Shown in pieces: positions 1,133 to 64,000 of a DNA stretch of 64,000 bases; position 1 is the stretch's first letter, and each line of letters opens with the position of its first letter. The stretch is from Eledone cirrhosa (taxonomy: Eukaryota). A program made the translations under genes and the position numbers. The DNA is taken from the NCBI GenBank assembly GCA_964016885.1, contig OZ024747.1, forward strand, positions 19,778,001 through 19,842,000, given 5' to 3'. The notes beneath the pieces are model-generated. The model had not been told where the DNA came from, ran no database searches, and was given only the letters and a program-made list of their open reading frames with translations.

Positions 1133-4100
1133 TTTTCTCTTTCTCTTAATTTTGAGTATATTTTTTGACCGGCCACCATCCTGGTGGCAAGGTTGTAAAA
1201 GAAAAGAAATTGTCATCCCTTGAATCGCAAGAATGTTTTGCAAATTTTGAAGGTGCCAGCTATCGCAGCCATTTGTAGACTATGAATTAGGGAGCTACGC
1301 TTTTTGTCCGCAAATCCAAGTTCAGTCATACTTTGGTCCAAGCGGGTTGATATATAACCCGTAGCACCAATAATGATGGGTATGAAGCTAAAGGTGTATC
1401 TTGGATACTGGATTTGTAAACTCCTCATCAATGGTCCGTAGATGTCCTCCTTCTCCTGTATTTTTCTGACAACGTTTACATCAAGTGGGCAGCTGATCTC
1501 CACAACAGAACACGTTTTCAATGTGTGGTCCCAAACTACAATATCAGGCCGGTTGTGCTTTAATTTGGTGGCAGTTTTTATTTTCAGGTTCCACCAGTAT
1601 TCCTTAGTGCCATCTGTCTCAATATATTCTTCCTCGTTTGTTGTTGATTTTGTTTTCCGAAGTGCGTTCCAGATGGTTCTAGCTATCCCATCGTGTCTCA
1701 TGGGGAGGTAGTAGCGAGATGACATTCTTTCGCAGCTGGCAACAATGTGGCTTACATTCTCGATCTTTGTTTTACATAGCCTACATTTATTGTCAGCTGC
1801 TGGCCCTCCTCTTTTGTGCAGCAGATATTTGGTAGGGAGTTCTTGTTCCTGTATTGCATAGAGATATCCCTCAAGGTGTGATGTCATAAACTTGTCGGAA
1901 CTCCATGCCAGGCTTTTTGAGTGGTTTATCCCCTCTATGGTCTGTGTTTTACGCCTCAAGTATCCATGCACAACTTTTTCTGTAAATTGGTCAATTTTTT
2001 TTTCTTGTTTGAACATTGAATAGGATCTTCCGATTTCTCTGGGTGAGAGATTTATATCGGGCTTTATTCCATATCTCTCCTCCAGATCAGTCGCTATTCT
2101 AATGATATTTCTTTTTTCATGGTCATAAACCTGGGCAAGATGGTTGCCAACCTTTTTCCTCTGTTGAAGGTGTTGCTTCTGTGTCACTATCCAGGTCTCA
2201 TATGTTGTTAATATTGATTTTAGACCCCGGCCACCTTCCTTGCGTGAGAAGTATAGCCTATCCACATCACCATTGATGTTAAAGTTCCCAGTAACACTGA
2301 GAAGTTTTCGAGTTCTAACATCCATCTCACTTAGTTCTTGCAATGACCAGTTCAGTAGGCCAAATGTTGGCGTTAGAATTGGCACAGCATAAGTATTGTG
2401 GGCAATGTATTTGTTGTATGCTGACAGTTCTGATGACCATATTTTCTTTACTCTTCTGAGGTATTCAGTTCTGGTTCTCTCCTTATTTATGGGTCCATCA
2501 TATCTGACATTCTCATCCTGTCCAAGATATCTGTAGTTGTCACCTGACTGCAGAGGTTGTATTGTCAGGCCGTTCATCTCTAGATTTCTAGAGGAGGGCA
2601 CAACTCTTCCACGTTTTACTGCCAAATATGCACATTTGGACTCACCAAATTTCATTTTGATGTCGGTTGAAAATTGTGTAATGAGGTCCAATTGTTTCTT
2701 GATGTCATTGATATTTGGCCCATACAACTTCAGGTCATCAACAAAGAAAAGATGGGAGATACTTCTGGTCCCACTTCTTTGTCGACCTTGTTTCCTGAGT
2801 AGGTAAGATAGTGGATTCAGTGAGAGAACGAAGAGTAGCACTGACAAGCTATCACCCTGAAAGATGCCCTTCTGGTAATGTATCTTATCAGTCTTAACCT
2901 GCTCCTTCTCACCTCTAAGGATCAAACTGGTGTACAAGTTCTTGGTCAGGCGTTCAACAGCAGCTACCAATGGTTGTGGGACTTTAGCTAACTGTAAAGC
3001 CTTAACAATCCACCCATGAGGTACACTATCAAATGCTTTTTGATAGTCCAGCCACACGACAGTCATGTTTCTGCGATTCTTTGTTGTTTTTTCCTGAATC
3101 ATTTTGTTAGTTAGTAGGTGATCTATGCAACCCCACACCTCCCTCTTTCCACCAGCTTGCTCAGGTGTTATGATGTTGTTGGTAGCACAGTGATCCTGTA
3201 AGAACAGGTTAAGGCACCCAGTATATAATTTATACATGATGTTTTGGCAGGCAATTGGGCGGTAATTTTTAGCAAGGGTGGTTTGGCTATTTTGGGGAAT
3301 GAGGAGAGTAGAGGCAGTTGATAACCATCTGGGCAGTTCTTGTGTGCCCTTAATGGTTTCTGTAAACAGCCGTATGAGATCTTGCCGATAGAAAGTGAAA
3401 TTCTTCAACCAGTATCCTGTAATGAGGTCTGGGCCTGGCGATTTCCTATTCGACATTTTCTGTAGAGCTGTTTCCAGTATTGACCCATCTATGTCATATT
3501 GTTTTGTCTGGACATGTTGGCAGTAGTCCTGTTCCAGTTCTTTTAGCCAATTAGCTTGTCTGTTGAATCCGTCATCCGTTTCCCATACAGATCTCCAGTA
3601 GCTCTCAACCTGTTCTTTTGAAGGGGTGTCATTTACAGAGATTGAGCTTTTGCCACCGAAGCTGCGATAAACTGATTTAGGATCTCTGGCAAACAATCTA
3701 TTTAGCACTTGTCGTTTATGTGCTGTTGACTTATATTTTAGTCTTTCTGTTGTAGCTGTGAGTTGTTGTTTCAACTGGTGTAATTTGGAGTTCAAAGTTT
3801 TAAATTTTGTATCTCCAAATCTTCTCTCTAACTTTTTCTTTAGGTCTTCCTGGTGTTGTGTGAAGTTGCTCTCTATGTTGCATTTCATAACGACTGCGAT
3901 GTGTGAGATACTTCGTCTCAGGGACAAAATTTTGGTTTTTAAATTTCGCATCCACGCTGGTTCAGGCTTTCTGTTTGTATCTTGATTGCGTGGTTTTAGA
4001 TGTGTGTTATATGCTAGCAATGTGACAGCTGAATCATATAACAAAACATTAAGCGTTTCAAATGTCGTTTCTACACCTTTAGATCGTATAGCCTTCAGAT

Positions 4101-4158
4101 AATTGCCAGCTATTTCGTTCACCGCTTCCAATTCCAATTTAGTGGGTTCTTTACTGAC
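1133..4158 (-). mobile_element. 5'-truncated R4/Dong-like non-LTR retrotransposon (RT + RLE) inserted in a (TACA)n microsatellite (unit A)
   Basis: Flanked by (TACA)n at ~1098-1132 and ~4159-4257. An ~80-nt 3' UTR ends in a purine-rich tract directly followed by TACA repeats. Homologous coding sequence begins abruptly at the upstream repeat and lacks the N-terminal Myb-like region seen in the 31.8-35.7 kb copy. Confidence 0.92.
1213..4158 (-). CDS. Reverse transcriptase + CCHC zinc knuckle + PD-(D/E)xK restriction-like endonuclease, uninterrupted ~980 codons (track ORF extends to 4290 through the repeat)
   Basis: RT motifs KSPGPD, NYRPIAC, EQAG, WLDYQKAFDSVPH, GIFQGDSLS, FVDD and YRYLG. C-terminal CRLC-x8-H-x4-C, RHD, RPD and EISCP motifs are typical of RLE non-LTR elements. 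Confidence 0.93.
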   Translation of the reverse strand, partial: VSKEPTKLELEAVNEIAGNYLKAIRSKGVETTFETLNVLLYDSAVTLLAYNTHLKPRNQDTNRKPEPAWMRNLKTKILSLRRSISHIAVVMKCNIESNFTQHQEDLKKKLERRFGDTKFKTLNSKLHQLKQQLTATTERLKYKSTAHKRQVLNRLFARDPKSVYRSFGGKSSISVNDTPSKEQVESYWRSVWETDDGFNRQANWLKELEQDYCQHVQTKQYDIDGSILETALQKMSNRKSPGPDLITGYWLKNFTFYRQDLIRLFTETIKGTQELPRWLSTASTLLIPQNSQTTLAKNYRPIACQNIMYKLYTGCLNLFLQDHCATNNIITPEQAGGKREVWGCIDHLLTNKMIQEKTTKNRRNMTVVWLDYQKAFDSVPHGWIVKALQLAKVPQPLVAAVERLTKNLYTSLILRGEKEQVKTDKIHYQKGIFQGDSLSVLLFVLSLNPLSYLLRKQGRQRSGTRSISHLFFVDDLKLYGPNINDIKKQLDLITQFSTDIKMKFGESKCAYLAVKRGRVVPSSRNLEMNGLTIQPLQSGDNYRYLGQDENVRYDGPINKERTRTEYLRRVKKIWSSELSAYNKYIAHNTYAVPILTPTFGLLNWSLQELSEMDVRTRKLLSVTGNFNINGDVDRLYFSRKEGGRGLKSILTTYETWIVTQKQHLQQRKKVGNHLAQVYDHEKRNIIRIATDLEERYGIKPDINLSPREIGRSYSMFKQEKKIDQFTEKVVHGYLRRKTQTIEGINHSKSLAWSSDKFMTSHLEGYLYAIQEQELPTKYLLHKRGGPAADNKCRLCKTKIENVSHIVASCERMSSRYYLPMRHDGIARTIWNALRKTKSTTNEEEYIETDGTKEYWWNLKIKTATKLKHNRPDIVVWDHTLKTCSVVEISCPLDVNVVRKIQEKEDIYGPLMRSLQIQYPRYTFSFIPIIIGATGYISTRLDQSMTELGFADKKRSSLIHSLQMAAIAGTFKICKTFLRFKG

Positions 4159-4227
4159 GTATGTATGCATGTATGTATGTATGTATGTATGTATGTATGT
4201 ATGTATGTATGTATGTATGTATGTATG

Positions 4228-4257
<30 letters not shown>

Positions 4258-4258
<1 letters not shown>

Positions 4259-4772
4259 GGTTTCTTGGTGAGGAGGGTGACTTTGGACATCCTGCAGGAC
4301 TAAAAACAAAACCTGTCAAGGGGCAAAGGAGCTCTTAAGTGTCAATGGCCATCCAAAATCACCTTGAGAGATGATCCCTTAGCCTTTATCAAGGCAGAAT
4401 TCTAGGAGAAGGAAATCTCTGATATAACATCTGCAACCCTGATGGTATCCAATGATGTTGACTTGTTCTTCTTTTTGGTAAATATCATCTTGGTTAAGAG
4501 TGTGGGACTTTCTTTGTGCAGTGCCTTTGCTCACTATAAAAGCTTCACGGCACAGGCATTGCTTTATATCTGGAGATCTCTCTGCACTTGTCATCACATG
4601 GTATCATGGGCCAAGCACTATGTGTCAATAATTGTCACAAGTGTAGTGTTTGTACCAGAGTTTTCAAGTCGCTGGCTGGACTAAAAAGTAACACTCGTTC
4701 AGCCCATCGGTAGGGGTTCTCCTACATGGATATAAAGTAGTGGCCGTACTCGAAAACGAGTTGGCAGCCACC
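4258..4772 (-). mobile_element. ~515-bp non-coding insert between (TACA)n tracts (unit B); putative non-autonomous SINE/SIDE-like element
   Basis: Sharp boundaries at TACA repeats on both sides and no RT homology. Hairpins at the presumed 5' end (GTGGCTG..ACTCG-TTTT-CGAGT..CGGCCAC; CCAT-GTAGG..CCTAC-CG-ATGG). Strand is inferred from neighbouring units. Confidence 0.45.
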
Positions 4773-4796: not shown

Positions 4797-5706
4797 TCTT
4801 CTGGTTTTATAATTTCACAAAGATTTACCAATAGAATGAGAGTCGGTTTCTAACATAGACACAAGACTCTCTCATTGGAATTTACGCAACATCAACTAGG
4901 TAGATATGTATATATGCATGCATGTGTAGATATGGATGTTATTGTATGTGTGGATGTGTATATTTTGAGTTCTATGTGTGCATGTGTATATGCTTTGTAT
5001 CTGTACATGTGTATATGCAGTTATTAGATGCAAAATGCTTGGAATGTTTTACATATTTTTACTGTTCCATTAATGGATTGTACTTGTAGTTTCCTAACTA
5101 GTTGTGTTATTTCTGTTCCTGTAAAGCCTAGCTTCTCAAGATTTGTATTGAGGCAGTTACTAACATATCCTAGTGCCCCAATAATCATAGGCATAAATCT
5201 GAAGGTGTAATCAGGGTGGAGTATCTGCAGATTTCTCATCAGTTCTGAATAAATATACTCCTTTTCACTAATCTTTGATATTATATTGGCATCTGCTGGG
5301 CAGCTAATTTCCACTACTGTGCATGTTTTCTTCTCCCCGTCCCATATCATAATATCTGGTCTGTTATGCCTGCATTATCATAATATTTGGTCAGTTCTGC
5401 AGAGTCGGCACTTGTTATCACATCTAGGTGTTTTGCCCGCATCCCTATCTCTTTTGTGAATCAGGTATTTCGTGCTAATCTCCTGTTCCTGAATTGCAAA
5501 AGCGTATACTTCAAAGTGGAAGCCCAATATAGCGGTTGTTGGTCCAAGATAGACTACTTTCCTTATCTATATTACTCTCACTCTGGAGCTCCTGTCAACA
5601 TATCCATGCACGGCTTATTGCTGATAGGCATGCAGTTTTTCATCCATGGATTCACTGCGATACTGCTTAGCGACATCCCTGGGTGTGAGTTTTTGATTAT
5701 CACACA
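4797..5706 (-). mobile_element. Degenerate 3' fragment of a second TACA-associated R4/Dong-like family (unit C)
   Basis: Translates in pieces to AIQEQEISTKYLIHKR..DNKCRLC / HNRPDIMIWD..VVEISCP..GTVKICKTF, a clear paralogue of the unit A C-terminus. It has stops, frameshifts and an internal deletion, with (TACA)n on both sides. Confidence 0.88.
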
Positions 5707-9563: not shown

Positions 9564-9572
9564 ATTGCAAAC

Positions 9573-9780
9573 TTGACTGTCACCACACATTATGAACCTG
9601 AAAATTGCGAAAGCATGAAAGTACTTGTTCAATTAACACTTAACATTTAATATTCTATCATACTATTTCATTATAATACCATTATAAATGTTAAAGGATT
9701 GTAAATAAAACGAGTAAATCAGACAAAGTTGGAATTCCTCTTATTAACATAATCTTCTATACACAATCATACACACCCGT
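9573..9780 (+). mobile_element. ~210-bp TA-flanked HHR-bearing mini-element (copy 1: core and tail co-oriented)
   Basis: TGAAC-CTGAAAA-TTGC GAAA GCAT-GAAAGTACTT-GTTCA at 9593-9631; second copy at 23001-23206. Confidence 0.75.
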
Positions 9781-10407
9781 GTATATTTATCTATCTATCT
9801 ATCTATCTATATATATATATAATATTATTGAATTGAGTACATACCATTTTCAATATATTATATTTTCTGTTCCTGCTTTTTTAAAACAATTCTTACTAAT
9901 AATAAGGAGCATTTTTTTACAGTGTTGCTTGTCTGTCATCGAAATGATAAGTTTCAGGGTACCCAACTGCAGATGTTCTGCCTTACTGGCCGTTGTAGAA
10001 CCTGGGTTTATTATTATGCAACTCCACCCAAATCACGAAATACTATTGTCCAGGAGGGCGGGCGTAATTTTTTCCTAAGTCACTTTTTTTTTATTTATTA
10101 GCATTGGAATGCCACGTGCTCCTTCTTTTAGTAACTAGTTGTTTACTTACCAAGCAATCTCTCTCTCCCCTCTCTCTATCTTTCTATCTCCCCCTCTCTG
10201 TTTCCACACTTCTTTGACGAAAGTCTATTTATGTCACCCTCATTCAATCTTAATTTGTCTGAAGCATATCTTAAGAAGTTTCCATCGTAAGAGGTTTACT
10301 CTTATTTATCTATGTACTCTCTATGCAGTCCTGGTAGATAGACTATCGCTGTTTTCCACCGTCTCTCTGTTGTTTGTTGTCTCATATACATACATATACA
10401 TACATAC

Positions 10408-10447
<40 letters not shown>

Positions 10448-10645
10448 ATATGTGTGTGTGAAGGTTTATGTTTTGGGTTTGTTTATGACCCGTAATATAA
10501 GGGTTTTGTCAAAAATTCGCAGAGAAAAATATTTATTTGTTCGATTAAATCTCTTCAAGTAGATGCCACATCATGGTCGAAAGCTAATGAATGAAACAGC
10601 TAAAAGAAATAGACAAGATGCAAAATTATCTCCACATATCACACT

Positions 10646-11818
10646 ATGTATTTAAATCATTTACAATGGTATAATCCTATCAACATTTATAATTTTGATG
10701 ATTACTATAACGACGCCTTAGCTAGATCCGGCTTTAGGGACAAATTGTATTACACCCAGGGAAATAATGGTCCTAATAGTAGCTCTACCAGTGTTGTTAT
10801 AACACATAATATGGCCATTGGTAATCGAGGTGTCGCGAATGGGAGGGTTCTAAATGCCGGTGGAATGAAACAGCAGGGCACCATTAGTCTAAGTAATAAC
10901 AATAGAGGTGTCGTGAACGGGAGGTTTCTAGATGCCGGTGGAATGAACCAGCAGGGCACCATTAGTCTAAGTAATAGCAATGGTGGGCCTCGCAGCTCCC
11001 CGCATGGACTAGGTGAGCATAGGAACCGTAGAAATAATAATGCTAATAATACTGATGGAAATAGAAAGAATAAAAAGAATAGAAGAAGATTGAATACATA
11101 CTTCAACCCCCCTTTTAATTCTGAAGTGGCTACAAATATTCCTAGGGCCTTCTTCTCTGTGCTAGAACGGAACTTCCCTCCTGGTAATAGGTACCACTCT
11201 ATCCTCAATAAGAATGTTGTTAAACTTTCATATTCTACAACCCAAAATCTAGCCTCTCATCTGGCCATTACTAATAATAAGAAAATAAAGGAAGGCCTGG
11301 ACAACCTAAGCCTAGGGGAAAACACGGTAGTGGATAGAGTGGGCAGTAACACTGGTGGTGATCTTTCTGAGAATAGCATCACCAGAGGTTGTAACTGTAG
11401 AAGGGCTTCGGGCTGCCCCCTGAATGGTTTCTGCCTTGTTAGAAACATAGTTTATGCGTGTGATGTGGTAACTACGGCGTCCACTATGTCCTATATAGGA
11501 TCAACTTCCACCCCCTTTAAGACCAGGTTTAACTCTCATCAATGCACTTTTAGACATAATAAACTGAAGAACTCCACCTCCTTGGCAGCGTACGTCCATA
11601 ATTTAAAAAATGCACGAACACCTTACACACTTACTTGGCGGCAGGTTGCTAAATCCCATCCATATACTCCTCATAGTAGAGTATGCAACCTGTGCCTTGC
11701 CGAATCCCACTCTATTATATTTGCTAAATGCCCTCTACTAAATAGAAAGTCTGAAATTTTTTCCTCTTGCCCCCACCGAATATTAAGCTCTTTCTTCTAC
11801 TTTAAACCTGTTAGCTAG
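10646..11818 (+). CDS. PLE C-terminal linker + zinc-binding region + GIY-YIG endonuclease, no RT core (5'-truncated; first ~15 codons probably foreign)
   Basis: YYNDALARSGF, YFNPPF..V.TNI, CNCR-x4-CPL-x3-C, IVY..YIGST..FKTRFNSH, CNLCLAE and LLNRKSEIFSSCPH match Penelope-like element C-termini. Confidence 0.88.
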   Translation: MYLNHLQWYNPINIYNFDDYYNDALARSGFRDKLYYTQGNNGPNSSSTSVVITHNMAIGNRGVANGRVLNAGGMKQQGTISLSNNNRGVVNGRFLDAGGMNQQGTISLSNSNGGPRSSPHGLGEHRNRRNNNANNTDGNRKNKKNRRRLNTYFNPPFNSEVATNIPRAFFSVLERNFPPGNRYHSILNKNVVKLSYSTTQNLASHLAITNNKKIKEGLDNLSLGENTVVDRVGSNTGGDLSENSITRGCNCRRASGCPLNGFCLVRNIVYACDVVTTASTMSYIGSTSTPFKTRFNSHQCTFRHNKLKNSTSLAAYVHNLKNARTPYTLTWRQVAKSHPYTPHSRVCNLCLAESHSIIFAKCPLLNRKSEIFSSCPHRILSSFFYFKPVS

Positions 11819-13461: not shown

Positions 13462-14331
13462 TATTTAAATTTAGATTTTAATTTTAACATTTTAAAATTT
13501 AAATTTAAATTTTATTTCTTTATTTATTTAATTTTTATTTATTTATTTATTTCTTTATTTATTTAATTACATTTAATTACATTTAATTATACATATAATT
13601 ATAATTACACATTTGATTTTAATTTTAATTTAGTCTATGTTATTTGATTTTAGTTTACCTTATTTTATCTTATTTTACGATTATACTATATTATGTTCTA
13701 TGTATATAATTTTTAATTTTTAATTGTATATTATTTTATCTCATTCCTTACCCTATATTTTATATTTTATATGTAAGTTTGTTATGTATTTCTTTGTATT
13801 TCTTTTTATATATATTATAAGTCTGTTTTTTACCTATTTTTTACCTATTTTTTACCTACTCTTACCTAATCCCATTATCTTATCTACTCTTGTCTGTTCT
13901 CTTATCCATGTGTCTACTCTTATCTGTTCTCTTATCCATGTGTATGCTTGTATGTAACTATATGTTGACAGCACACCGCCCAACTGTGACAGATAGCACC
14001 ACTTATTTTTATTTTTATTTTTATTTATTTTTACTTTTATTTTTATTTTTTATTTTTTATTCTTATCCTCTATCGTCTATTATTACCTTTCATTCTTCAA
14101 TGTCTTGGATTTGTTATTGCTTGTATGGTATGTAATTAACCTTTATGCTCTGATGAGTCCCACTTATAGTGTGGATGAAACAATGTTAGCAAGTAAAGAT
14201 ATGCATATGCTATAAGCGTTCTTTGTTATTTATTTATTATATTACGGCTCTGTCCTCAGACATTGAGCTAACCTCATACTGCCTGCTGGATAAGTGGAGT
14301 GTTATACACCCCTGATCCTTTCCCTAGCATA
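10690..14331 (+). mobile_element. 5'-truncated Penelope-like element with ~2.5-kb 3' non-coding region ending in (TA)n
   Basis: GIY-YIG ORF, then a non-coding region with internal direct repeats (12940-13300), an HHR at 14141-14198 and a TCCTCAGACATTGAG tail motif, then a long (TA)n. Continuity of the 3' region as one element is inferred. Confidence 0.7.
14141..14198 (+). ncRNA. Type I hammerhead ribozyme (minimal, PLE-type)
   Basis: Stem I CTTTA-TGCT / AGCA-ag-TAAAG; CTGATGA at 14150-14156; stem II GTCC-CACT tat AGTG-t-GGAT; GAAAC-aat-GTT. Predicted GUU cleavage after 14187. Confidence 0.8.
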
Positions 14332-20056: not shown

Positions 20057-20663
<607 letters not shown>

Positions 20664-22982: not shown

Positions 22983-23000
22983 TATATATATATATATATA

Positions 23001-23204
23001 TTAATAAAAGGAATTCCAACTTTGTCTGATTTACTCGTTTTATTTACAATCCTTTAAAATTATAATGATAATATTATAAAATAGTATGGTAGAATATTAA
23101 ATGTTAAGTGTTAATTGAACAAGTAGTTTCATGCTTTCGCAATCTTCAGGTTCATATTCAGTGGTGACAGTCAATATAATATTCTATACGCAATCATACA
23201 CACC

Positions 23205-23206
<2 letters not shown>
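23001..23206. mobile_element. HHR mini-element copy 2: core (23001-23174) on minus strand, tail (23176-23206) on plus strand
   Basis: The core is the reverse complement of 9573-9747 and the tail matches 9749-9780 directly. The minus-strand HHR at 23116-23154 has an intact CTGAAGA. Confidence 0.8.
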
Positions 23207-23250
<44 letters not shown>

Positions 23251-23252
<2 letters not shown>

Positions 23253-23353
23253 CGAAGGAGATGGGGTAAGGAACCTAACGCACCAGCGTACTCAATACTT
23301 AGGGTAGTAGAGTTGGCAATAGGAAAAGGTATGACCCAGAGGTCATACCTTTT

Positions 23354-23358
<5 letters not shown>
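23251..23358 (-). mobile_element. Fold-back mini-element, short form (18-bp arms)
   Basis: ATAGGAAAAGGTATGACC-caga-GGTCATACCTTTTCCTAT plus the family tail; (TA)n on both sides. Confidence 0.85.
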
Positions 23359-23397: not shown

Positions 23398-23770
23398 GTA
23401 TTATTCCTTTGCTATTATTACTCCAAGAAAAGGCTGCCTAGGAACTTTCTTAAACTGGCCACCCGAATAAGGAAACTTCTTGTTAGGTCTAACAACGCCG
23501 TACGTTAAAACTATCCTCGACAAAGAGTACTCAAAACCCCTAACTGGATTACCTTAAACGATACCTTGTTATCTTTTATATATATATATATACTTTTCAA
23601 CAACTAGTTCGACAGCTTCTTCCAGTCTGGAACTAACTGTTGAAACGGAAAAGTGCAGTCGTCGTGCTCCGAATCTTTATAATATAACCATACTATATTA
23701 TCCCAAGTATCGAGTATTCTGTTGAGTAATGGTCTAACTAGTTTAAAACTGGTTGTTACCTCAGAGGATG
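23398..23770 (+). mobile_element. Two further TA-separated PLE-like termini (23398-23577; 23592-~23770, a diverged relative of the fold-back family)
   Basis: TCCTCGACAAAGAGTACTC and TATCCCAAGTATCGAGTATTCTG tail motifs. Confidence 0.45.
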
Positions 23771-25060: not shown

Positions 25061-25179
25061 GGAGGGCGAGAGAGATGGAGGAGATGACAGTGGGAGTTGC
25101 GCTCTTCCACGTTCGAACCGTATCGTTGTGGTTGTTTTCATTATCTATAGAGTTCATTCTATTATTTAGTTGTTATATG

Positions 25180-25372
25180 AAGGGCGGTGGATTGGCAGTA
25201 TCAGTAGAGGGTCGGACGCCATGCTTTGACGTATAGAGTTACGGCTCTTGCTATTCTGAGTTCAAATCCCGCCGAGGTTAACTTTGCCTTTCATCCTTAC
25301 GGGGTCGATAAAATAAAGTACCAGTAATACACTGGGTATTTGCTGGCCTTGTGCCAAAAGTAGAAACAATTA
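25180..25372 (+). mobile_element. tRNA-derived SINE with Meta-like domain; 18-bp TSD
   Basis: A-box-like TGGCAGTATCAG, B-box GAGTTCAAATCC, GCCTTTCATCCTTACGGGGTCGATAAAATAAAGTACCAG. TSD ATTATTTAGTTGTTATAT at 25161-25178 and 25369-25386. Confidence 0.9.
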
Positions 25373-25880
25373 TTTAGTTGTTATATACCTACTAGATTAT
25401 CTGAGGAAATCGACATATCCTGGATTGGCACATGTGCCAGTGTGAGATTTCTAAAGTAATCCCCGTTCACTTGGCACCTGCGACAGTAACTAAGATAAAG
25501 ATTTCGTGTCTGAGAAACCGCGTACATGTGGGTTATTATTAATCTTATTAATTCATCCCCTTAGACTTTCTTCGTGTATTGTCGACCTCTCGTAAAATCT
25601 AAGGAGTCCACTCTGATAAAAAAATGTCCCTATTTCTTGCTGCATTGAATAAGTAGGGAGAAACTGTAATTAATCCGACGTTTGATGTCATCTGTCAAAA
25701 CAACTTCGGTAATTTCTCTATTATATGTATATATATATGTACGCCAATACTCTCCCTTTTCTATTTTAAACAAGGCCAACATTTCTTCAGTCACAAATAC
25801 AGCGAAAGCTTCTATTTTTCTACTAAATTTCAAACTTCGGTCGCTGTTTCAAAACAAAGTTATGTATGTATATATATATA

Positions 25881-26062
25881 AACAAACAGGGTGTGGTAAC
25901 ATACCAGGTGGACCATAATGCACCAGAGTATTCGATACTTAGGGTAGTAGAGTTGGTAATAGGAAAAGAGTCAGGACCCCGACGGCTGAGCTCCAGCCGT
26001 TTAGGCTCTAGCTGTCAAAACGGCCAGAACTCAGCCGTCGACCATGTTATTCTTCACTCTTT

Positions 26063-26064
<2 letters not shown>
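25881..26064 (-). mobile_element. Fold-back mini-element, diverged copy
   Basis: Family tail CCAGGTGGACCATAATGCACCAGAGTATTCGATACTTAGGGTAGTAGAG plus an imperfect palindrome; (TA)n on both sides. Confidence 0.8.
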
Positions 26065-26518: not shown

Positions 26519-26520
<2 letters not shown>

Positions 26521-26721
26521 CGAAGGAAATGTGGTAAGGAACCAGGTGGACCATAACGCACCAAAGTACTCGATACTTGGGGTAGTAGAGTGGGTAATAG
26601 GAACCAGTAAGACCCCGACAGCTGAGCTCAAGCCGTTTCGACGGCTAATTCTGGACCAGAATACTGGACCAGAATTAGCCGTCGAAACGGCTTGAGCTCA
26701 GCTGTCGGGGTCTTACTGGTT

Positions 26722-26726
<5 letters not shown>
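26519..26726 (-). mobile_element. Fold-back mini-element with perfect 58-bp arms
   Basis: 26597-26654 is the reverse complement of 26669-26726; ~78-nt unpaired tail; (TA)n on both sides. Confidence 0.9.
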
Positions 26727-29251: not shown

Positions 29252-29310
<59 letters not shown>

Positions 29311-30002
29311 CACAAGAACCAAAGCTATGTTCAAAGCATTTATTCACTTACAATTGTTTCATCCATCCCGAGGCTTGGTGTCTTCGGAGCATTTTTCAAT
29401 GTTTGTACACATAATTGACCTCCTTTCCAACGCAAGAGACATACAGATACATATATATATATTGATGTACAGTGGGGTGACATATATTATACTATACTAT
29501 TTTTGTACAGCAATTCAAATTCAAAATCAAAATCAAAATCAAAATCAAAATCAAAATTAAAATCAAAATCAAAATTAAAATACATTCGGCAGATAACACA
29601 GATAATGCAAGAGGATAGTTTGATAGTCAGATCTAGTAGGTAGTGTATGCGTTAGTTACACATGGAGCATGCAAGTGTGTCTCATTTTTATACGATTATT
29701 GTGTGGCAGGGTGTTACATATAATGCAAGCACTTTAAGTGGGTAAGCAAGAGTATTATGGTGGTTGTAGTGGTAAGGTAATTTTTGTATAGAACAAAAAT
29801 GTATGTGTGCAGAAAAAGGCTTTCAACATAGCTTTGTATTCTTGTGAATTCTATATAACAGCTTGTAGAACAACCGATGTTATTACATTGAGCTATTTAT
29901 CTTACTGGTAATAAGGTAGTAATAAATTACTGACCTTCACTGTTTTGGGTTTAAAATATACATAACTATAAAAAGTTTTAATATATACATAACCATGTAT
30001 CC

Positions 30003-30052
<50 letters not shown>

Positions 30053-30054
<2 letters not shown>

Positions 30055-30113
30055 GAAAATATTCAAGACCCCGACGGCAGAGCTCCAGCAGTTTCGACGG
30101 CGGCTATTTCTGG
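30053..30113 (-). mobile_element. Solo inverted arm of the fold-back family
   Basis: GGAAAATATTCAAGACCCCGACGGCAGAGCTCCAGCAGTTTCGACGG..CTATTTCTGG directly after (TA)n. Confidence 0.8.
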
Positions 30114-31782: not shown

Positions 31783-34700
31783 AGTTGCATTTATCTTGCT
31801 TTATGTTCATACGAGTTATCACCAAGTCACAACCAGTGACCCCAAGAGACAACAAGCTCCGCCATGTTCAAGAAAGAACATACATACTCACACATGCATC
31901 TTTAGGCGTTTAGACTTGTGATGTACTTATATTGACAGAATCTTCCTTAGTATATGGGCAGTTCCAATTAGTACTATCTTTTGTATTTCTCCTATACGCG
32001 AGTTTCCTGGGATGTGCGATAAGTAATCATTAGACCCCTAGTGACCTTACAACCACTGGTATTGTTTTAGTTCTCAATTTCCACATTTTTCCAATTTCTA
32101 TCACCAGGTCCTAATATTTGCTCAATTTTTCAAATGTTTTTATAGATACATTCTTGTCTATTGGAACGGACATATCAATTAGCAGGCATACTCTCTTTTT
32201 AAAGTCCTTCAGTATTATATTAGGTCTATTTGCATCTATTTTTCGGTCTGTTTGGATGCTAACGTTCCGCCAAGATTGAGATGTGATCTTTTTCAAGTAT
32301 GGGAGGGTTGATGCTCTCACCAATTCTTTTGATGGGGCAGGTCAAAATGCTTACACATTATCCAATGTATGTATTGTGCAGCTCTGTCATGCCTGTTTAG
32401 GTATTCGGTTGGAGCTATAGGACTGCACATTGAAATTATATGATCATGGTCTCTGGTTGTTTTTCACATACACGCCATAATGGGTTGCATCCATTTTTTA
32501 TTATGTTGGCTTGGTAATTTTTTGTTGGCAGACACTGATCTTGTGCTGATATAATCAGTCCTTCAGTCTCCGATTTCAGTCCAGAGGATGCCAACCACTG
32601 ATGGGTTAAAGCTTTGTCAACATCTGGATTGTTAGCTCTTTCTGGGTATTTTCCATACAGAGGCTTTTCTTGCCATTTCTTAGCCAGTTTCTGGAGCAGT
32701 TCTTTCTTTGCAGTTACTTTTACCTGCTTTGCTTTTTCTGTGTTTACCATTTCAGCAGTAAATGGGATTTCTGTAATTTGTAGTCCATTACTGTACCTTT
32801 GTGCATCTTTTGTAATAGAGTATGATCTGTTGATGCTTTCGTGTTTCAAAATGAGTTTGATCATCCAATCATGTGATTCCTTTAGATATGTAGATAATCC
32901 AATTGTTGCAGTTTTCAACGCAATATCTAACTGGATTAACCCACGCCTCCTTCTTTCCTAGCGAGATATATTCTATCTGTATCTGCCTTAGGGTGATGCA
33001 TTCTGTGCATGGTTAAGAATTTTCTGATTTTTGTATCGAGCCTACGGATCTCTGTGCTTGACCAGTTGATGACATTGTTACTGTAGGTTACTACTGGTAT
33101 AGCAAGCGTGTTTAGTGCATCGATCCTATTCCTTGCATTCAATTCCGTTCTTAAGATTGCTCTTACTCTGCAGTAACATTCCTTCCTTATTCTTTCCCTC
33201 ACTGACGAGTGCTTGATTCCGTCTCCATCACAAACACCTAGATATTTGTAAGTTTCCTCTTGATCAAGTTCTCTTATCACATTCCCCCGATCAAGATTAA
33301 TGTCTGAACTTTTCAGCAGCTTTCCTCTGGTGAACGTTGCTTTGGCGCATTTATCTAGTCCAAACTCCATTTTAATGTCATCACTGAACTGCTCCACAGT
33401 GGATAATAGCCCTTGCAATTGTTCATAATTTTATGCAAATAGTTTCAGGTCATCCATGTAGAACAAGTGATTAATGGTTTTGTCATAGACTTTATATCCA
33501 TGTTTTGTTTCATTGAGCATTTTACTTAATGGTATAAGTGCGATGCAGAATAAAAGCGGTGATAAAGAGTCACCCTGAAAAATTCCACAATTAATATTAA
33601 CTTCTCCAGCTTCCAGTGATTCCTTTTCACTATTCAAAAGGAGTGTCGTTTTCCATGTCTTCATACTGAATGACAAGAACCTCCTGACAACGGTAGATAT
33701 TTTGAAAATCTCTAAACATTTTTCAATCCAACTGTGTGGCAAACTATCGAATGCTTTTTTATAATCTATCCAAGCAATTGATAGATTTTTGTGTCTATTA
33801 TGACAATCTTGCAGTATCATTTTGTTAACCAAAAGCTGATCCTTACAGCCATATGAGCCTCATTTACACCCTTTCTGCTCATTGGGAAATAGGTCATTTG
33901 TTATCAGGTGGTCATATGTATCTTCAGTTAGAACTGATGTTAACATTTTATACATTGTGGTCAAGCAAGTTATCGGTCTGTAATTTTTGGGGTTGTTTGT
34001 CTCATCATTCTTCGGAAGTAGGAATGTAATGCCGTTAACTAGCCATGATGGTATCTTTTCTGGCTCCTTAACTATTTCATTGTAAAGTTGGGCTCATGAG
34101 ACTCTGTGAAGGCATTTATCCAAACATTTGGTATTTTGTCTTTTCCTGGGGATTTCCATTTGCTGGTTTTTCTAAGAGCCAAACCCAACTGTTCAACTGT
34201 TATATTTTCCCATATTTGTTCCTCAAAGTGAGCTGTATATTTCATTTGTCTGTCTATCCATTGGGCATGTATATTATGAACTTGTTCTTCGGCCCAGATC
34301 TTTTTCCAGAATTCTTGCACTTCCTCCTTGGGTGGTATTGATTTAGCAGTTATTGTTGACTTACCAATTTTTCTGTAGAAGTTTCTTTGGTTGTTTTTGA
34401 ACATATTATTGTCCTTATAGAATCTAGATCGTTTTTCAAAGCACCTTATACGAGCAGCTTTGGCCGACACTTTTTGCTTGATTATTTCTATCACCATGTC
34501 TATCTCACTTGTTGATTTTATACTGTACTTTCTTTTCAATTTTCTAAGTTTAGTTTGTTTACCATGTTCACCTACTTTATAGTTTGTTAAAATTTCTATG
34601 TCAGATCGGAGAAGGTTTATTTGGCGATTGATGTTCTCTTGCCAAGTAGATTTCTTGTGTGAATTCCTTTGTTTTTCCATTTTCACTCCACATAAGTGAG

Positions 34701-35736
34701 TGGTGACTTTAGCCGATGCATAATAGAGATGATTTAAATCAGTAATGCTTAGTTTGTTTGTGATGATAATGTTTTTGAGAATTATGTTAGTCTTGTGTAT
34801 TATCTTTTAGTTCTGTTTGGAGTTCTGGACCTTAGGGAGGGTGTCTCGTTCCCCCATGTCAGATTCTTTCATTTTCATCCATTCGTTCATAATTTCATCC
34901 TTCAAGTTGGCAAGTTCATTCTCATTCATTTCTTTATCATTTACGATCTCATTGTTTTCATTTTGAGTTTCATCTTGAGCATGCACTCCCTCCACTTTTT
35001 CGATCCTTTCTTTAATTTGTTCTGTTGTCAGTGATTCCGCCCCAACCCTGGGATTCGAAGTGTTACAATTTACCTCGTTTTCACTGACACATGTTTCATT
35101 TTTCCCTTCGCTGACTTTGTGCTAATAGCTTGATCTGATCAATTTCTATATCAGTTAGTAACTTTTTAAAATCAATATTTCTTCGTATATTGGCTAGTTT
35201 GTTACTGTCAATATAGCCTCTGTTTTCGGGATGTTCCTTTTTCCAGTTGATATATGTCTGTTCTGTATTCGATGTATTTGATGGGTAGTACATGGCAGTG
35301 TAGAAAGCCTCAAGGACTTCTTTATTATCTTCCCTTGACCATTTTTCTCTCTTTTTCTTTGGATTTCTTGGTGGTAAGCATGGAGGGCCAACAGTAGGAG
35401 TATTCCGGTTATGGGAGGTCTCCAGCTCCGAAGTGATGGGAAGGTTTGAACCATTAGCTGATTTTTCGACCCCAGTCTGGTTCCTCTCTGAGGGACGCGG
35501 CCCTTTTTGACCCGGGTGACGACCGATCCGGTATGAGATTTTATCATTTGACATTTACTTTTATTTTGTCGCGTTTTATTGTTATCCGCCAAGGGGTAAT
35601 CATTTCGTGTTACCACTTCTAGGCCGAGTGTCAACCAAGACTAGAGGGGTCGTCCTCCCCTAGAGATACGGCTATTCCCCCCCGGCCGCCATCCCGGTAT
35701 TTCTTGGTCACGGGGTTTTCTTTTTTGTTGTTCTTT
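31781..35736 (-). mobile_element. Near-full-length, frameshifted Dong/Rex6-like (R4 clade) non-LTR retrotransposon in (TAA)n
   Basis: ORF pieces in correct order: Myb-like KWSREDNKEVLEAFY (35096-35554); KSPGKD (34072-34686); WIDYKKAFDS, GIFQGDSLSPLLF, YMDD (33431-33832); YKYLG (32936-33418); ETEGLIISAQDQ (32436-32918); RLE (32111-32323). (TAA)n at the 3' end and short TAA runs 5'. Confidence 0.93.
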
Positions 35737-40948: not shown

Positions 40949-47275
<6,327 letters not shown>

Positions 47276-47740: not shown

Positions 47741-47915
47741 TAGGAAAAAGTATGACCCCGACGGCAGAGCTCAAGCCATTGCATAGCCGTCGAAACGGCT
47801 TGAGCTCTACCGTCGAGGTCATACTTTTTCTTATTTATTTCCAACTCTACTACCCTAAGTATTGTGTACTCTGGTGCGTTATGGTCCATCTGGTTCCTTA
47901 CCTCAATTCCTTTGT

Positions 47916-48591: not shown

Positions 48592-48635
48592 ACATATATA
48601 CATATTAATATATATACATATATACATAATATAAA

Positions 48636-48824
48636 TAATTGTTTCTACTTTAGGCACAAGGCCAGCAATTACCAGTGCATTACTGGTACTTTATTTTATC
48701 GACCCCGTAAGGATGAAAGGCAAAATCAACCTCGGCGGGATTTGAACTCAGATCGTAAACGGACGTAACTATGCTGGAAAGCATGGCGTCCGACCCTCTA
48801 CCGATACTGCCAATCCACCGCCCT
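48636..48824 (-). mobile_element. Meta-like SINE, copy 2; 19-bp TSD
   Basis: Reverse complement of the 25.2-kb SINE. TATACATAATATAAATAAT at 48621-48639 and 48826-48844. Confidence 0.9.
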
Positions 48825-48891
48825 TTATACATAATATAAATAATATAAATACAATATATATATAAATATGCGTATATATGTATATATATAT

Positions 48892-50475: not shown

Positions 50476-50543
<68 letters not shown>

Positions 50544-50690
50544 AATGGAACATAACTTTAAAAACCATATTTATTTTATTATACATATTTCAAGGGTACT
50601 ACAATTTTAGTACGCTTTCGTCAGATAAAATATAATATTTGTGTTAAGATAGTGATATACCTTCGTGTGATCTTAATGGTATAAGCCCAC

Positions 50691-50748
<58 letters not shown>

Positions 50749-51404: not shown

Positions 51405-51596
51405 GAAAATGTTCAAGATCCCTGCGGCACAGCTCAAGCCGTTTCGACGGCTATTTCTGGTATAGACATAGCCGTCGAAACGGCTTGAGCTCTGCCGTCG
51501 GGGTCTTGAACATTTTCCTATTACCCACTCTACTATTCTAAGTATGGAGTACTCTGGTGCGTTATGGTCCACCTGGTTCCTTACCACACTTCGTTC

Positions 51597-51600
<4 letters not shown>
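51405..51600 (+). mobile_element. Fold-back mini-element with intact 3' half-hammerhead
   Basis: Arms ~51405-51454 / 51468-51517; GAA-ACGGC-ttgagctct-GCCGT-C-GGGGTC; family tail; (TA)n on both sides. Confidence 0.88.
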
Positions 51601-52523: not shown

Positions 52524-53900
52524 CTACAATGATAGCATGTTGTTCCAGACAATGAGACATCTTTGACGAAAACCGCTTAGAGAAGAGTCAATGCGGGCTC
52601 CCAAGAATTTGAAGTCTGTAAAGATTTCTATGTTTGCCAGACCAGATCGTTTGGGTTCGGCACGGGTGTAGTTTATATGCATGGTTTTTGTATTCTCTGG
52701 GTTAAATCTAAGGCCAACCTGGGTGGCAGTATGTTGCTGCAAGAGCTTGGGACGTGTCTGAAAAGTCTAAATCATATAGAACAACTTCAGATTTTTCTGG
52801 ATGCATTTTTAATCCATGTTTGAAGATTGTCTGTTTATTAATATAGTCAGGTACAACCATAAAAAGGAAGGGGTTACGTGTGTCCCCTTGTAAAACACTA
52901 ATGACAAGTTGAATCATGTAATTGCCAAGAGGGATACGGTTTGTGCTGTTGGAGTAGATTGAAGCAATAACATCAACAATTTTGGAAGCGATTAACTTGT
53001 GTCGTAGTTTTTCCCACATGTTATTCCAGCTGATAGAGCCGGATGCCTTGTTGATATCTACAGAGGTGGCAATAAGTGGTAGCTAGCGTTGGTGGTAAGC
53101 CTCTATTATCATTCTCAGTACATCTATTTGTACGAGACAGTTTCACCTCCTGCTAAATAATTGTTTCTACTTTTGGCACAAGGCCAGCAATTACCCAGTT
53201 GCATTACTGGTACTTTATTTTGTCGACCCTGTAAGGGTGAAAGGCAAAGTTAACCTCGGCGGGATTTGAACTCGGAATGACAAGGGCCGTAACTCTATGC
53301 GTCAAAGCTTGGTGTCCGACCCTCTACCGATACTGCCAATCCACCGCCCATTGCTAAATAATACTGGTTGGTATGTTCGAAGGATTGTATTTACTCGTTT
53401 TAAATGCGAATCGGGAGCTTTGTCTTACCTTTACAGAAGCTGACATTAGTGATATTCTTCAGAAGTTTTCCATGTCCAATTGAATAGGTATGATAACATT
53501 TTCTCTCAATTGCTTTGTTGCTTCTTTTTGATTGAGAACAAAGTTTGTAATCTCAATGAGTGTTGAATTTTGTTTTGTACCACCACATTGGAAAGTTTCT
53601 GCAGTTACAAATGTGTTGATTTCTGGAGTTTTGTTGGATTTTATAGATGTGTTAATATCTAAGTCCAATAATGCTTCCAGAATGTTAACTATAGCAGTAG
53701 AGGTGACTTCAATTGTCAAGGGTTCTTCGAAATATTTCCACAATCTTTAAATAGCTCAGTTACATCTGAAAAGGGTTCTCCATTTCTTTTATTCACGATT
53801 GATGCATTATTTGTTGAAGATTTTCTGCAGTTGTTACGTATAATTGAGAAGACTGTGCATGGCTGATTTAGTATTGCGGCTTATTCTGCTTCATTGCATA
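52524..53900 (-). mobile_element. Decayed LINE RT fragment (RTE/RTEX-like), interrupted by a SINE
   Basis: VLQGDTRNPFLFMVVPDY, DLDFSD, VGLRFNPENTKTM and FKFLGA remnants; right boundary approximate. Confidence 0.7.
53158..53349 (-). mobile_element. Meta-like SINE, copy 3; 11-bp TSD
   Basis: Reverse complement of the 25.2-kb SINE. TGCTAAATAAT at 53151-53161 and 53352-53362. Confidence 0.9.
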
Positions 53901-60731: not shown

Positions 60732-60804
60732 GTCCCTGTAGCGCAGGGGATAGCGCGCTGGACTTCTAATCCAGAGGTCGTGGAGTCGAATCATACCAGC
60801 TATG
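60732..60804 (+). pseudogene. tRNA-Arg(UCU) pseudogene or tRNA-derived SINE head
   Basis: D stem GCGC/GCGC and anticodon arm CTGGA-CTTCTAA-TCCAG are intact. The T-loop reads GTCGAAT, and the T stem and acceptor stem are mispaired. Confidence 0.75.
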
Positions 60805-63702: not shown

Positions 63703-63873
63703 GTACACACACACACAAATACATATATATACACACACATATATGTATATATATATATATGTGTATATATATATATACATACACACACACACACAAATAC
63801 ATATATATACACACACACATATATGTATATATATAATATATAATATATATAGTATATATATATATATGTATAT

Positions 63874-63985
63874 GAAAAGCTTCAGGACCGTTTCGACAGG
63901 TAGATCGGTACTCATATTACCCACTCTACTATCCCAAGTATCGAGTACTCTGGTGGGTTAGGCCTAGCTGGTTTTTACCACACCC
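63874..63985 (+). mobile_element. Diverged fold-back family copy (tail plus arm remnant)
   Basis: TATTACCCACTCTACTATCCCAAGTATCGAGTACTCTGGTG..TTACCACAC; CCGTTTCGAC remnant; TA flanks. Confidence 0.75.
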
Positions 63986-64000
63986 TATATGATATACATA

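Follow-up and report, generated by a model that had tools for sequence, protein, structure and literature searches.

Two insertions resembling Penelope-like elements in TA tracts of Eledone cirrhosa, one with its core inverted directly on an unreversed tail

Two short insertions in a stretch of 64,000 nucleotides from Eledone cirrhosa (contig OZ024747.1, positions 19,778,001 to 19,842,000 of the forward strand; hereafter the window), called copy A and copy B, carry the same core in opposite orientation relative to a tail that is read in the same direction in both. This opposite orientation is real and far beyond chance. Masked self-BLAST aligned the cores 9573–9746 (+) and 23174–23002 (-) with 92.5% identity over 174 nt (E 6e-67), and a global alignment gave 13 differences in 175 columns. 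The tails, both on the plus strand, are identical in 31 of 34 aligned columns with a score of 53, while the maximum reached by 300 shuffles was 25. An earlier sequence-only reading had described core and tail as co-oriented in A, and the core as reversed with the tail unreversed in B, and these alignments uphold that description. The masked search was used for the whole window; unmasked self-BLAST and an inverted-repeat finder were drowned in microsatellites. Masked self-BLAST and a motif search found two copies of this family within the window. The tail of 34–35 nt is present once, at one end only, in each of them, and a 14-mer taken from it matches exactly only in A and B, two more matches with two mismatches falling in microsatellite. 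An exact 25-mer gave no match in bacterial and archaeal genomes. We consider it probable that A and B arose by independent insertion of the 3' end of a Penelope-like element (PLE) and have since decayed, this end consisting of a pseudo-LTR (pLTR) with a hammerhead motif followed by the tail, and that their source was a PLE that targets (TA)n and whose hammerhead resembles that of the Hydra clade; this judgement is made jointly with the insertion mechanism proposed below. The coordinates are collected in Table 1.

Table 1. Coordinates of the main features, numbered from the first base of the window.
Feature	Position	Strand	Remarks
Seven non-microsatellite bases 5' of copy A core	9566..9572	+	no counterpart in B; longer 5' end or junction filler
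Copy A core	9573..9747	+	orientation as its own tail
Copy A hammerhead-like motif	9593..9631	+	G8->A at 9603; palindromic stem III intact; predicted cut 9626/9627
Copy A tail	9748..9781	+	~34 nt; followed by TA/TATC microsatellite
5'-truncated PLE ORF	10613..11818	+	C-terminal GIY-YIG endonuclease, Hydra-clade motifs; context only; alignments showed no link to A or B
(TA)9 target tract left of copy B	22983..23000		
Copy B core	23001..23174	-	inverted tail-less pLTR-like arm; outer end at core/tail boundary, adjoins (TA)9
Copy B minimal type I hammerhead-like motif	23116..23154	-	core intact; pair 15.2-16.2 of stem III broken, C at 23126; predicted cut 23121/23120
Copy B tail	23175..23209	+	~35 nt, AC-rich; fused directly to 5' end of inverted core; followed by (TA)21
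Second family, eight copies	23252-23355, 23595-23745, 25888-26063, 26520-26723, 30054-30113, 47743-47915, 51406-51598, 63872-63986		from masked self-BLAST
Second family, symmetric end of series	26520..26723	-	60-nt inverted arm, 4-nt spacer, 60-nt forward arm, 80-nt tail, in (TA)n
Second family, B-like copy	63872..63986	+	inverted core (~20-nt internal deletion) directly on tail position 1; forward arm absent

Both copies adjoin TA tracts, in agreement with the (TA)n insertion preference of the Hydra clade, although with 134 tracts of at least five TA in the window such adjacency alone is a weak indication. The flanks of A and B align through TA runs only. Since the flanks are unrelated and each lies in (TA)n, A and B are separate insertions and not the two states of one inverted segment. 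The core/tail border is common to both within an ambiguity of 4 nt, which arises because the tail of B begins with TATA beside (TA)n. The inverted arm of B starts where the tail of A begins and its forward tail starts at the first tail base, with no base lost or duplicated at the tail boundary. At the inner junction, where the 5' end of the core meets the tail, there is a 2-nt microhomology (AA). The 5' ends of A and B differ by at most 7 nt (n=2, the common 5' end being by construction that of the shorter copy), and the inverted match between the two core ends covers three of four bases and does not extend past 4 nt. Of the claim that both copies use the same core endpoints, the common core/tail border therefore stands within its ambiguity, and the 5' ends do not, as A has seven extra bases. 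The endpoints had also been called unexpected. Their border corresponds to the fixed tail boundary of PLEs and is expected, and the 5' agreement holds only within 7 nt in two copies; the fixed boundary mostly explains the earlier surprise.

The assignment to PLEs follows from a comparison with published ends. A tail-less inverted arm and a tail of 30–40 bp are established PLE features (PMC8557442, PMC3846280, PMC2377424, PMC8969392), and the earlier statement that PLE insertions can have an inverted 5' pLTR lacking the short tail matches this literature (PMC8557442, PMC3846280). In EN+ PLEs with such an inverted pLTR and tail, as Drosophila virilis Penelope and Adineta vaga Pen2a (PMC2377424, PMC3846280), the inverted arm is tail-less and the tail stands at one end, as do the 34–35 nt of A and B. 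The copies described there retain a forward pLTR or an ORF between inverted arm and tail, so that the core is duplicated, whereas B duplicates nothing. By sequence features, our copies show the hammerhead motif in the pLTR, the one-ended tail in the 30–40-bp range and, in B, the inverted 5' arm beginning at the tail boundary that characterize EN+ PLEs.

The closest known counterparts are Hydra-clade PLEs (Craig et al. 2021, PMC8557442), e.g. Penelope-3_HM, Penelope-5_HM, Penelope-13_HM and Hydra-1_cRog, for the second last of which a 5'-truncated inverted copy has been noted (Penelope-13_HM, PMC8557442). Shared features are a stem II that starts with TGC and is flanked by one extra U on either side, cleavage after U, a (TA)n target and a ribozyme at some 100–210 nt from the 3' end. 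By our own count by eye of the 26 Hydra rows in File S2 of that paper, the U flanking stem II on both sides recurs in 14 and cleavage after U in 10. In this comparison by eye A and B have a canonical hammerhead of Hydra-clade layout near the 3' end with a shorter stem III, 6 nt as opposed to about 9. As we read the position column of the same file, the distance between ribozyme start and consensus end is 87–425 nt (mostly 87–210); here, counted from 20 nt before stem I to the end, it is 175 nt without and about 210 nt with the tail. Published Hydra-clade ends agree with A and B in the layout of the hammerhead, the (TA)n target, the length of the tail and the distance of the ribozyme from the 3' end, which supports the PLE reading, with no ORF linked. 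Differences from the Hydra-clade elements are the lack of an ORF in A and B and a forward part of B made up of the tail alone. Four short motifs of the window, each taken on one strand, had no match in the supplement text of PMC8557442.

The hammerhead-like motif opens with a stem I of 5 bp and the core box. An extra U precedes stem II (3 bp, GAAA loop), after which come another U, GAA, the stem III region of 6 nt and, at the cleavage site, a U. The predicted cut lies 121 nt from the tail start. By motif match all conserved hammerhead boxes are found in at least one of the two copies. That each copy keeps the part of the hammerhead which the other has lost could be confirmed: A has G8->A with stem III intact, B an intact core with the stem III lesion G15.2->C. 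Two differences between A and B fall in the 39-nt motif and 11 in the other 136 columns. The motif is therefore no better conserved than the remainder of the core, and the complementary loss needs no special explanation; it looks like neutral decay, and to judge from these lesions both ribozymes are probably dead. Minimal hammerheads whose stem III is palindromic have been described before, often as the single motif of a truncated PLE (PMC4209133). The motif scan of the window had no chance control and required a stem III pair; because B lacks this pair, it was reported only under an alternative parse. Local Rfam scans gave no match on B and three unrelated weak matches on A, none of them a hammerhead, and a scan of the whole window with 172 matches showed no hammerhead among the 150 matches listed, which were mostly microsatellite look-alikes of miRNA families. 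Folding z-scores (+0.48 and +0.95 for A, -1.79 and -0.14 for B) gave no convincing single-strand signal. Relative to two monomers, co-folding of two identical copies was more stable by about 8 kcal/mol in A and by about 2 in B, values obtained without controls. Alignments of A with other hammerhead-like islands or with 10460–10700 were not significant, 36–265 of 300 shuffles reaching the score. An ATG inside the motif closes after 11 codons, and the idea of the core as the start of an ORF was dropped for this reason. Nothing points to a present function of either copy.

The ORF at 10613–11818 contains the motifs CxCX5C, CxxC and CxH and lacks CCHH. Its search for relatives returned 6153 at E up to 0.001; among the six long relatives inspected, YRDD is found in all six, the CxC linker in five and an RW[KR] motif at residue 36 in three. 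Pfam assigned no family to the ORF and gave one sub-threshold GIY-YIG match among the six long relatives, while a word-index protein search of the endonuclease against longer proteins accepted 0 of 1168 candidates. The ORF also has an Asn/Gly-rich insert with a 78-bp tandem duplication (10823–10981), which we take to recall the N-rich inserts in Adineta Penelope ORFs. The CxCX5C linker without CCHH fits the description of the Hydra clade (PMC8557442), and judged by these motifs a PLE of GIY-YIG, Hydra-like type is present in the genome. The best alignment between the flanks of the ORF and A was reached by 2 of 300 mononucleotide shuffles, which in AT-rich sequence is not convincing. A was also considered as the 5' pLTR of this ORF, and this was dropped as A is not repeated downstream of it. 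Inside A and B an ORF combining RT with a C-terminal GIY-YIG endonuclease (CxCX5C, no CCHH) is absent. We therefore do not claim membership in the Hydra clade; by their architecture A and B appear to work like PLE 3' ends.

The flipped form is not restricted to copy B. A second, unrelated family in the window is made up of units some 140 nt long, inserted in (TA)n, in which the boundary of the 80-nt tail is fixed and the hairpin arms vary in length and have copy-specific variants in common. The tail, or most of it, is present in seven of the eight copies. On the 5' side an inverted tail-less arm is followed by a forward arm of about 60, 48–60, 47, 39, 15–17 or 0 nt; the copy at 23595 is too decayed for scoring, and that at 30054 is a single tail-less arm ending at the boundary. 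In five of six copies displayed the start of the inverted arm is no more than 1 nt away from the tail boundary, and the copy at 25888 has a similar start with an insertion. The arms reach reference positions 1–6 in five of eight copies, the reference having been taken from one of these five and another limit being that one of the five scores weakly. In the symmetric copy at 26520 the spacer repeats the first four tail bases. The copy at 63872 represents the other end: its inverted score was 24–26 against four of five family references and 21.5 against the fifth, its forward score 10–11, and the inverted score was reached by 0–6 of 1000 dinucleotide shuffles and by 0–13 of 3000 random genomic 43-mers. 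The motif scan showed no hammerhead in this family, an ORF is lacking, and the tail is twice as long as usual for PLEs; the family is PLE-like by architecture only, so that PLE identity and orientation are assumed. Reading it backwards as a tRNA-derived SINE was dropped, the A- and B-box-like stretches being seen by eye only. From this series, running from 60 to 0 nt of forward arm and including the B-form copy at 63872, copy B is the zero-forward-arm end of the known inverted structure of PLEs. The flipped form is thereby no one-off, which would have counted against the sequence-only reading, and of the two integration modes suggested there, more than one integration outcome is borne out, but as a continuum of forward-arm lengths and not as two modes.

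Further inserts of this kind were seen in the window. In the one at 29308–29900 the inverted arm begins at (TA)26 and carries a hammerhead-like motif (29387, minus strand); a short forward arm and a putative tail lie at a distance of about 470 bp. The motif at 29387 is related to one in forward orientation at 14150 (0 of 300 shuffles), whose similarity to the tail at 29.8 kb is not significant (94 of 300 shuffles). The insert at 20106–20545, between TA tracts, has two inverted 35-bp arms separated by about 270 bp, and an extension of about 97 nt that resembles a tail. In both inserts the inverted arm begins at the tail boundary, and in all four families (A/B, the second family, 29308–29900 and 20106–20545) the tail begins with TA-rich, target-like bases. 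An insert of about 180 bp in (TA)n at 50530–50700 (-) has an intact hammerhead core with an 8-bp stem I and a long stem II, and is a single copy in the window.

The core and tail orientations, the junctions, the unrelated (TA)n flanks and the series of arm lengths in the second family lead us to favor, as the rather likely explanation, reverse transcription primed from both nicked strands of a (TA)n target, at the tail end and at the tail start, with the cDNAs joined head-to-head. Since (TA)n reads alike on both strands, the GIY-YIG endonuclease of a PLE would first nick both of them. One 3'-OH would then prime reverse transcription at the distal start, the end of the tail, and the other at the proximal start, where the tail begins, possibly aided by the short TA microhomologies seen at the junctions, and the two cDNAs would be joined head-to-head. 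If the distal primer alone succeeded, core plus tail as in copy A would result. If both acted and the first polymerase passed the second start, the known palindrome plus tail would be formed, and if the first polymerase halted at the second start, as on one shared RNA, the product would be an inverted core plus tail with no duplication, the form of copy B. Copy B would then correspond to L1-like twin priming with a fixed internal priming site, and both ribozymes would have decayed neutrally afterwards.

Several steps have precedents. Nicking of both strands was demonstrated in vitro for the anole PLE on AT-rich DNA, the PLE protein cuts and extends both strands, and two starts of reverse transcription bracket the tail; the protein is predicted to be a dimer, and insertion proceeds without need of ribozyme cleavage (PMC11167929). 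The inverted 5' copy with a 30–40-bp tail is typical of PLEs (PMC8557442; PMC3846280). Against priming from both strands, the anole study reports initiation without target homology, whereas microhomologies are present here (PMC11167929). The A/B family also comprises two copies only, neither with a linked ORF. A more far-reaching version, which we regard as doubtful, is that PLE polymerase dimers routinely copy one RNA from two fixed starts on opposite target strands, a programmed twin priming in which the length of the forward arm would reflect the extent of strand displacement, B would be the product without displacement, and the templates would include short non-autonomous RNAs of defined length in more than one family.

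Among known systems, PAc Poseidon of Anolis carolinensis (Frangieh et al. 2024, PMC11167929) shares an AC-rich tail downstream of the hammerhead, an AT-rich target and two fixed boundaries bracketing the tail. The distance from cut to tail is about 85–92 nt in PAc as compared to the 121 nt found here. The ORF of PAc starts inside the ribozyme and initiation shows no target homology, in contrast to the early closing ATG and the boundaries with TA microhomology in our copies. Inverted products are not described for PAc in the portion of PMC11167929 consulted. The twin or dual priming of L1 (PMC2837659) likewise gives an inverted upstream and a forward downstream part, no duplication and small microhomology at the internal junction; L1 differs in its variable internal priming site and its poly(A) end, whereas here the site appears fixed per family and poly(A) is absent.

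Where the template came from is a separate matter. It may have been a non-autonomous RNA of defined length (about 210 nt) mobilised in trans by a PLE, a tentative proposal, made in part by the sequence-only reading, which concerns the source of the RNA and is compatible with priming from both strands. At their 5' ends A and B agree to within 7 nt, which by a rough estimate would happen by coincidence in 1–7% of cases under random truncation over 200–2000 nt, the second family shows the 5' clustering of five in eight copies given above, and non-autonomous PLEs have been reported in Chlamydomonas (PMC8557442). Yet there are only two copies in the A/B family and A has its 7 extra 5' bases, the second-family reference comes from one of the five clustered copies, one of which scores weakly, and the same clustering would follow from a strong stop of reverse transcription immediately upstream of the ribozyme, or from a start at the pLTR promoter of an autonomous element.

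The main rival of double priming holds that B arrived as an ordinary PLE palindrome, produced e.g. by snap-back self-priming, from which breakage of the hairpin and repair through microhomology afterwards removed precisely the forward arm. Long palindromes are unstable. A near-perfect palindrome of 60+60 nt exists in the second family (26520–26723), where a deletion between the spacer and its repeat at the tail start would give the flipped form, and the junction of B has the AA microhomology (three of four bases matching). We nevertheless find this account unlikely: both flipped copies, B and 63872, keep the tail from its first base and the inverted arm to approximately the 5' limit of the family, and a random one-sided deletion would hit the boundary within 2 nt in a few percent of cases per copy (rough estimate). 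Several copies of the second family are near-symmetric hairpins, which fit snap-back self-priming (PMC3846280) equally well.

That the unit is a metazoan retrozyme spreading through hammerhead-cleaved circular RNA is very unlikely. Its size of about 210 nt, low GC and type I hammerhead with palindromic stem III would fit, metazoan non-LTR retrozymes also being short AT-rich non-coding units with a type I hammerhead, and an active retrozyme ribozyme of the axolotl has a U-U pair at the base of its stem II (PMC7229834). Those elements are tandem repeats cut at the ribozyme (PMC7229834), whereas A and B are dispersed single units with ends away from the cleavage site: masked self-BLAST showed no tandem copies in the window, the predicted cleavage site is the start or end of neither copy, and inverted arm and tail are PLE features.

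A precise inversion of the core in place after insertion, by recombination between end repeats, had been suggested earlier and is highly improbable. The tail boundary without lost or duplicated base and the 3/4 inverted match of the core ends would agree with it, but the match is limited to 4 nt in AT-rich sequence, the flanks of A and B have only (TA)n in common, the extra 7 bases of A are absent from the left end of B, and an unrelated family shows the same flipped form; the inverted recombination sites and identical flanks of a site-specific invertible segment are lacking. An assembly error at a hairpin or microsatellite is equally hard to credit for B, even in a window with so many TA tracts (134 of at least five TA) and a 2075-bp triplication at more than 99.6% identity, as B differs from A at 13 positions and was not built from its reads, collapse of a palindrome would not normally fuse the 5' end of an arm to the tail, and the junction of B follows the family-specific boundary.

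Other repeats accompany these inserts in the window. The triplication just mentioned (41079–47118; unit of 2075 bp, three tandem copies, 99.7–99.9% identity) is either a very recent duplication or an assembly artefact. A stop-to-stop frame of 1028 codons at 1213–4299 (-) with RVT_1 and zf-RVT Pfam matches is presumably a R4/Dong-like LINE, and decayed relatives lie at about 5024–5700 and 32436–35554. A SINE-like repeat of 220 bp, which we take to be of tRNA/CORE type, occurs in three copies (25157–25377, 48632–48848, 53153–53363; 87–93%) with direct flanking repeats, and an Rfam tRNA match at 60732–60804 (+) scores 39.6 bits, above the gathering score.

The origin of the tandem and inverted structures of PLEs has been named an open question (PMC8557442). 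Neither the form without forward arm nor a twin-priming account of PLE inversions was found in the literature searched, a scope outside of which lie the 2005 and 2006 PLE reviews, Repbase and Dfam, and the form may be known to curators. What keeps the lopsided form of interest is its recurrence in an unrelated family, together with its power to discriminate between rival models of PLE inversion. Snap-back self-priming (PMC3846280) gives symmetric arms and cannot yield an inverted core straight on the tail, while priming from both target strands at the two known starts (PMC11167929) can. Because the models predict differently, the mechanism can be tested at little cost by a genome-wide count of such copies. 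For annotation, inserts of 100–250 bp in TA tracts which resemble foldback elements or unknown repeats may be the ends of PLEs.
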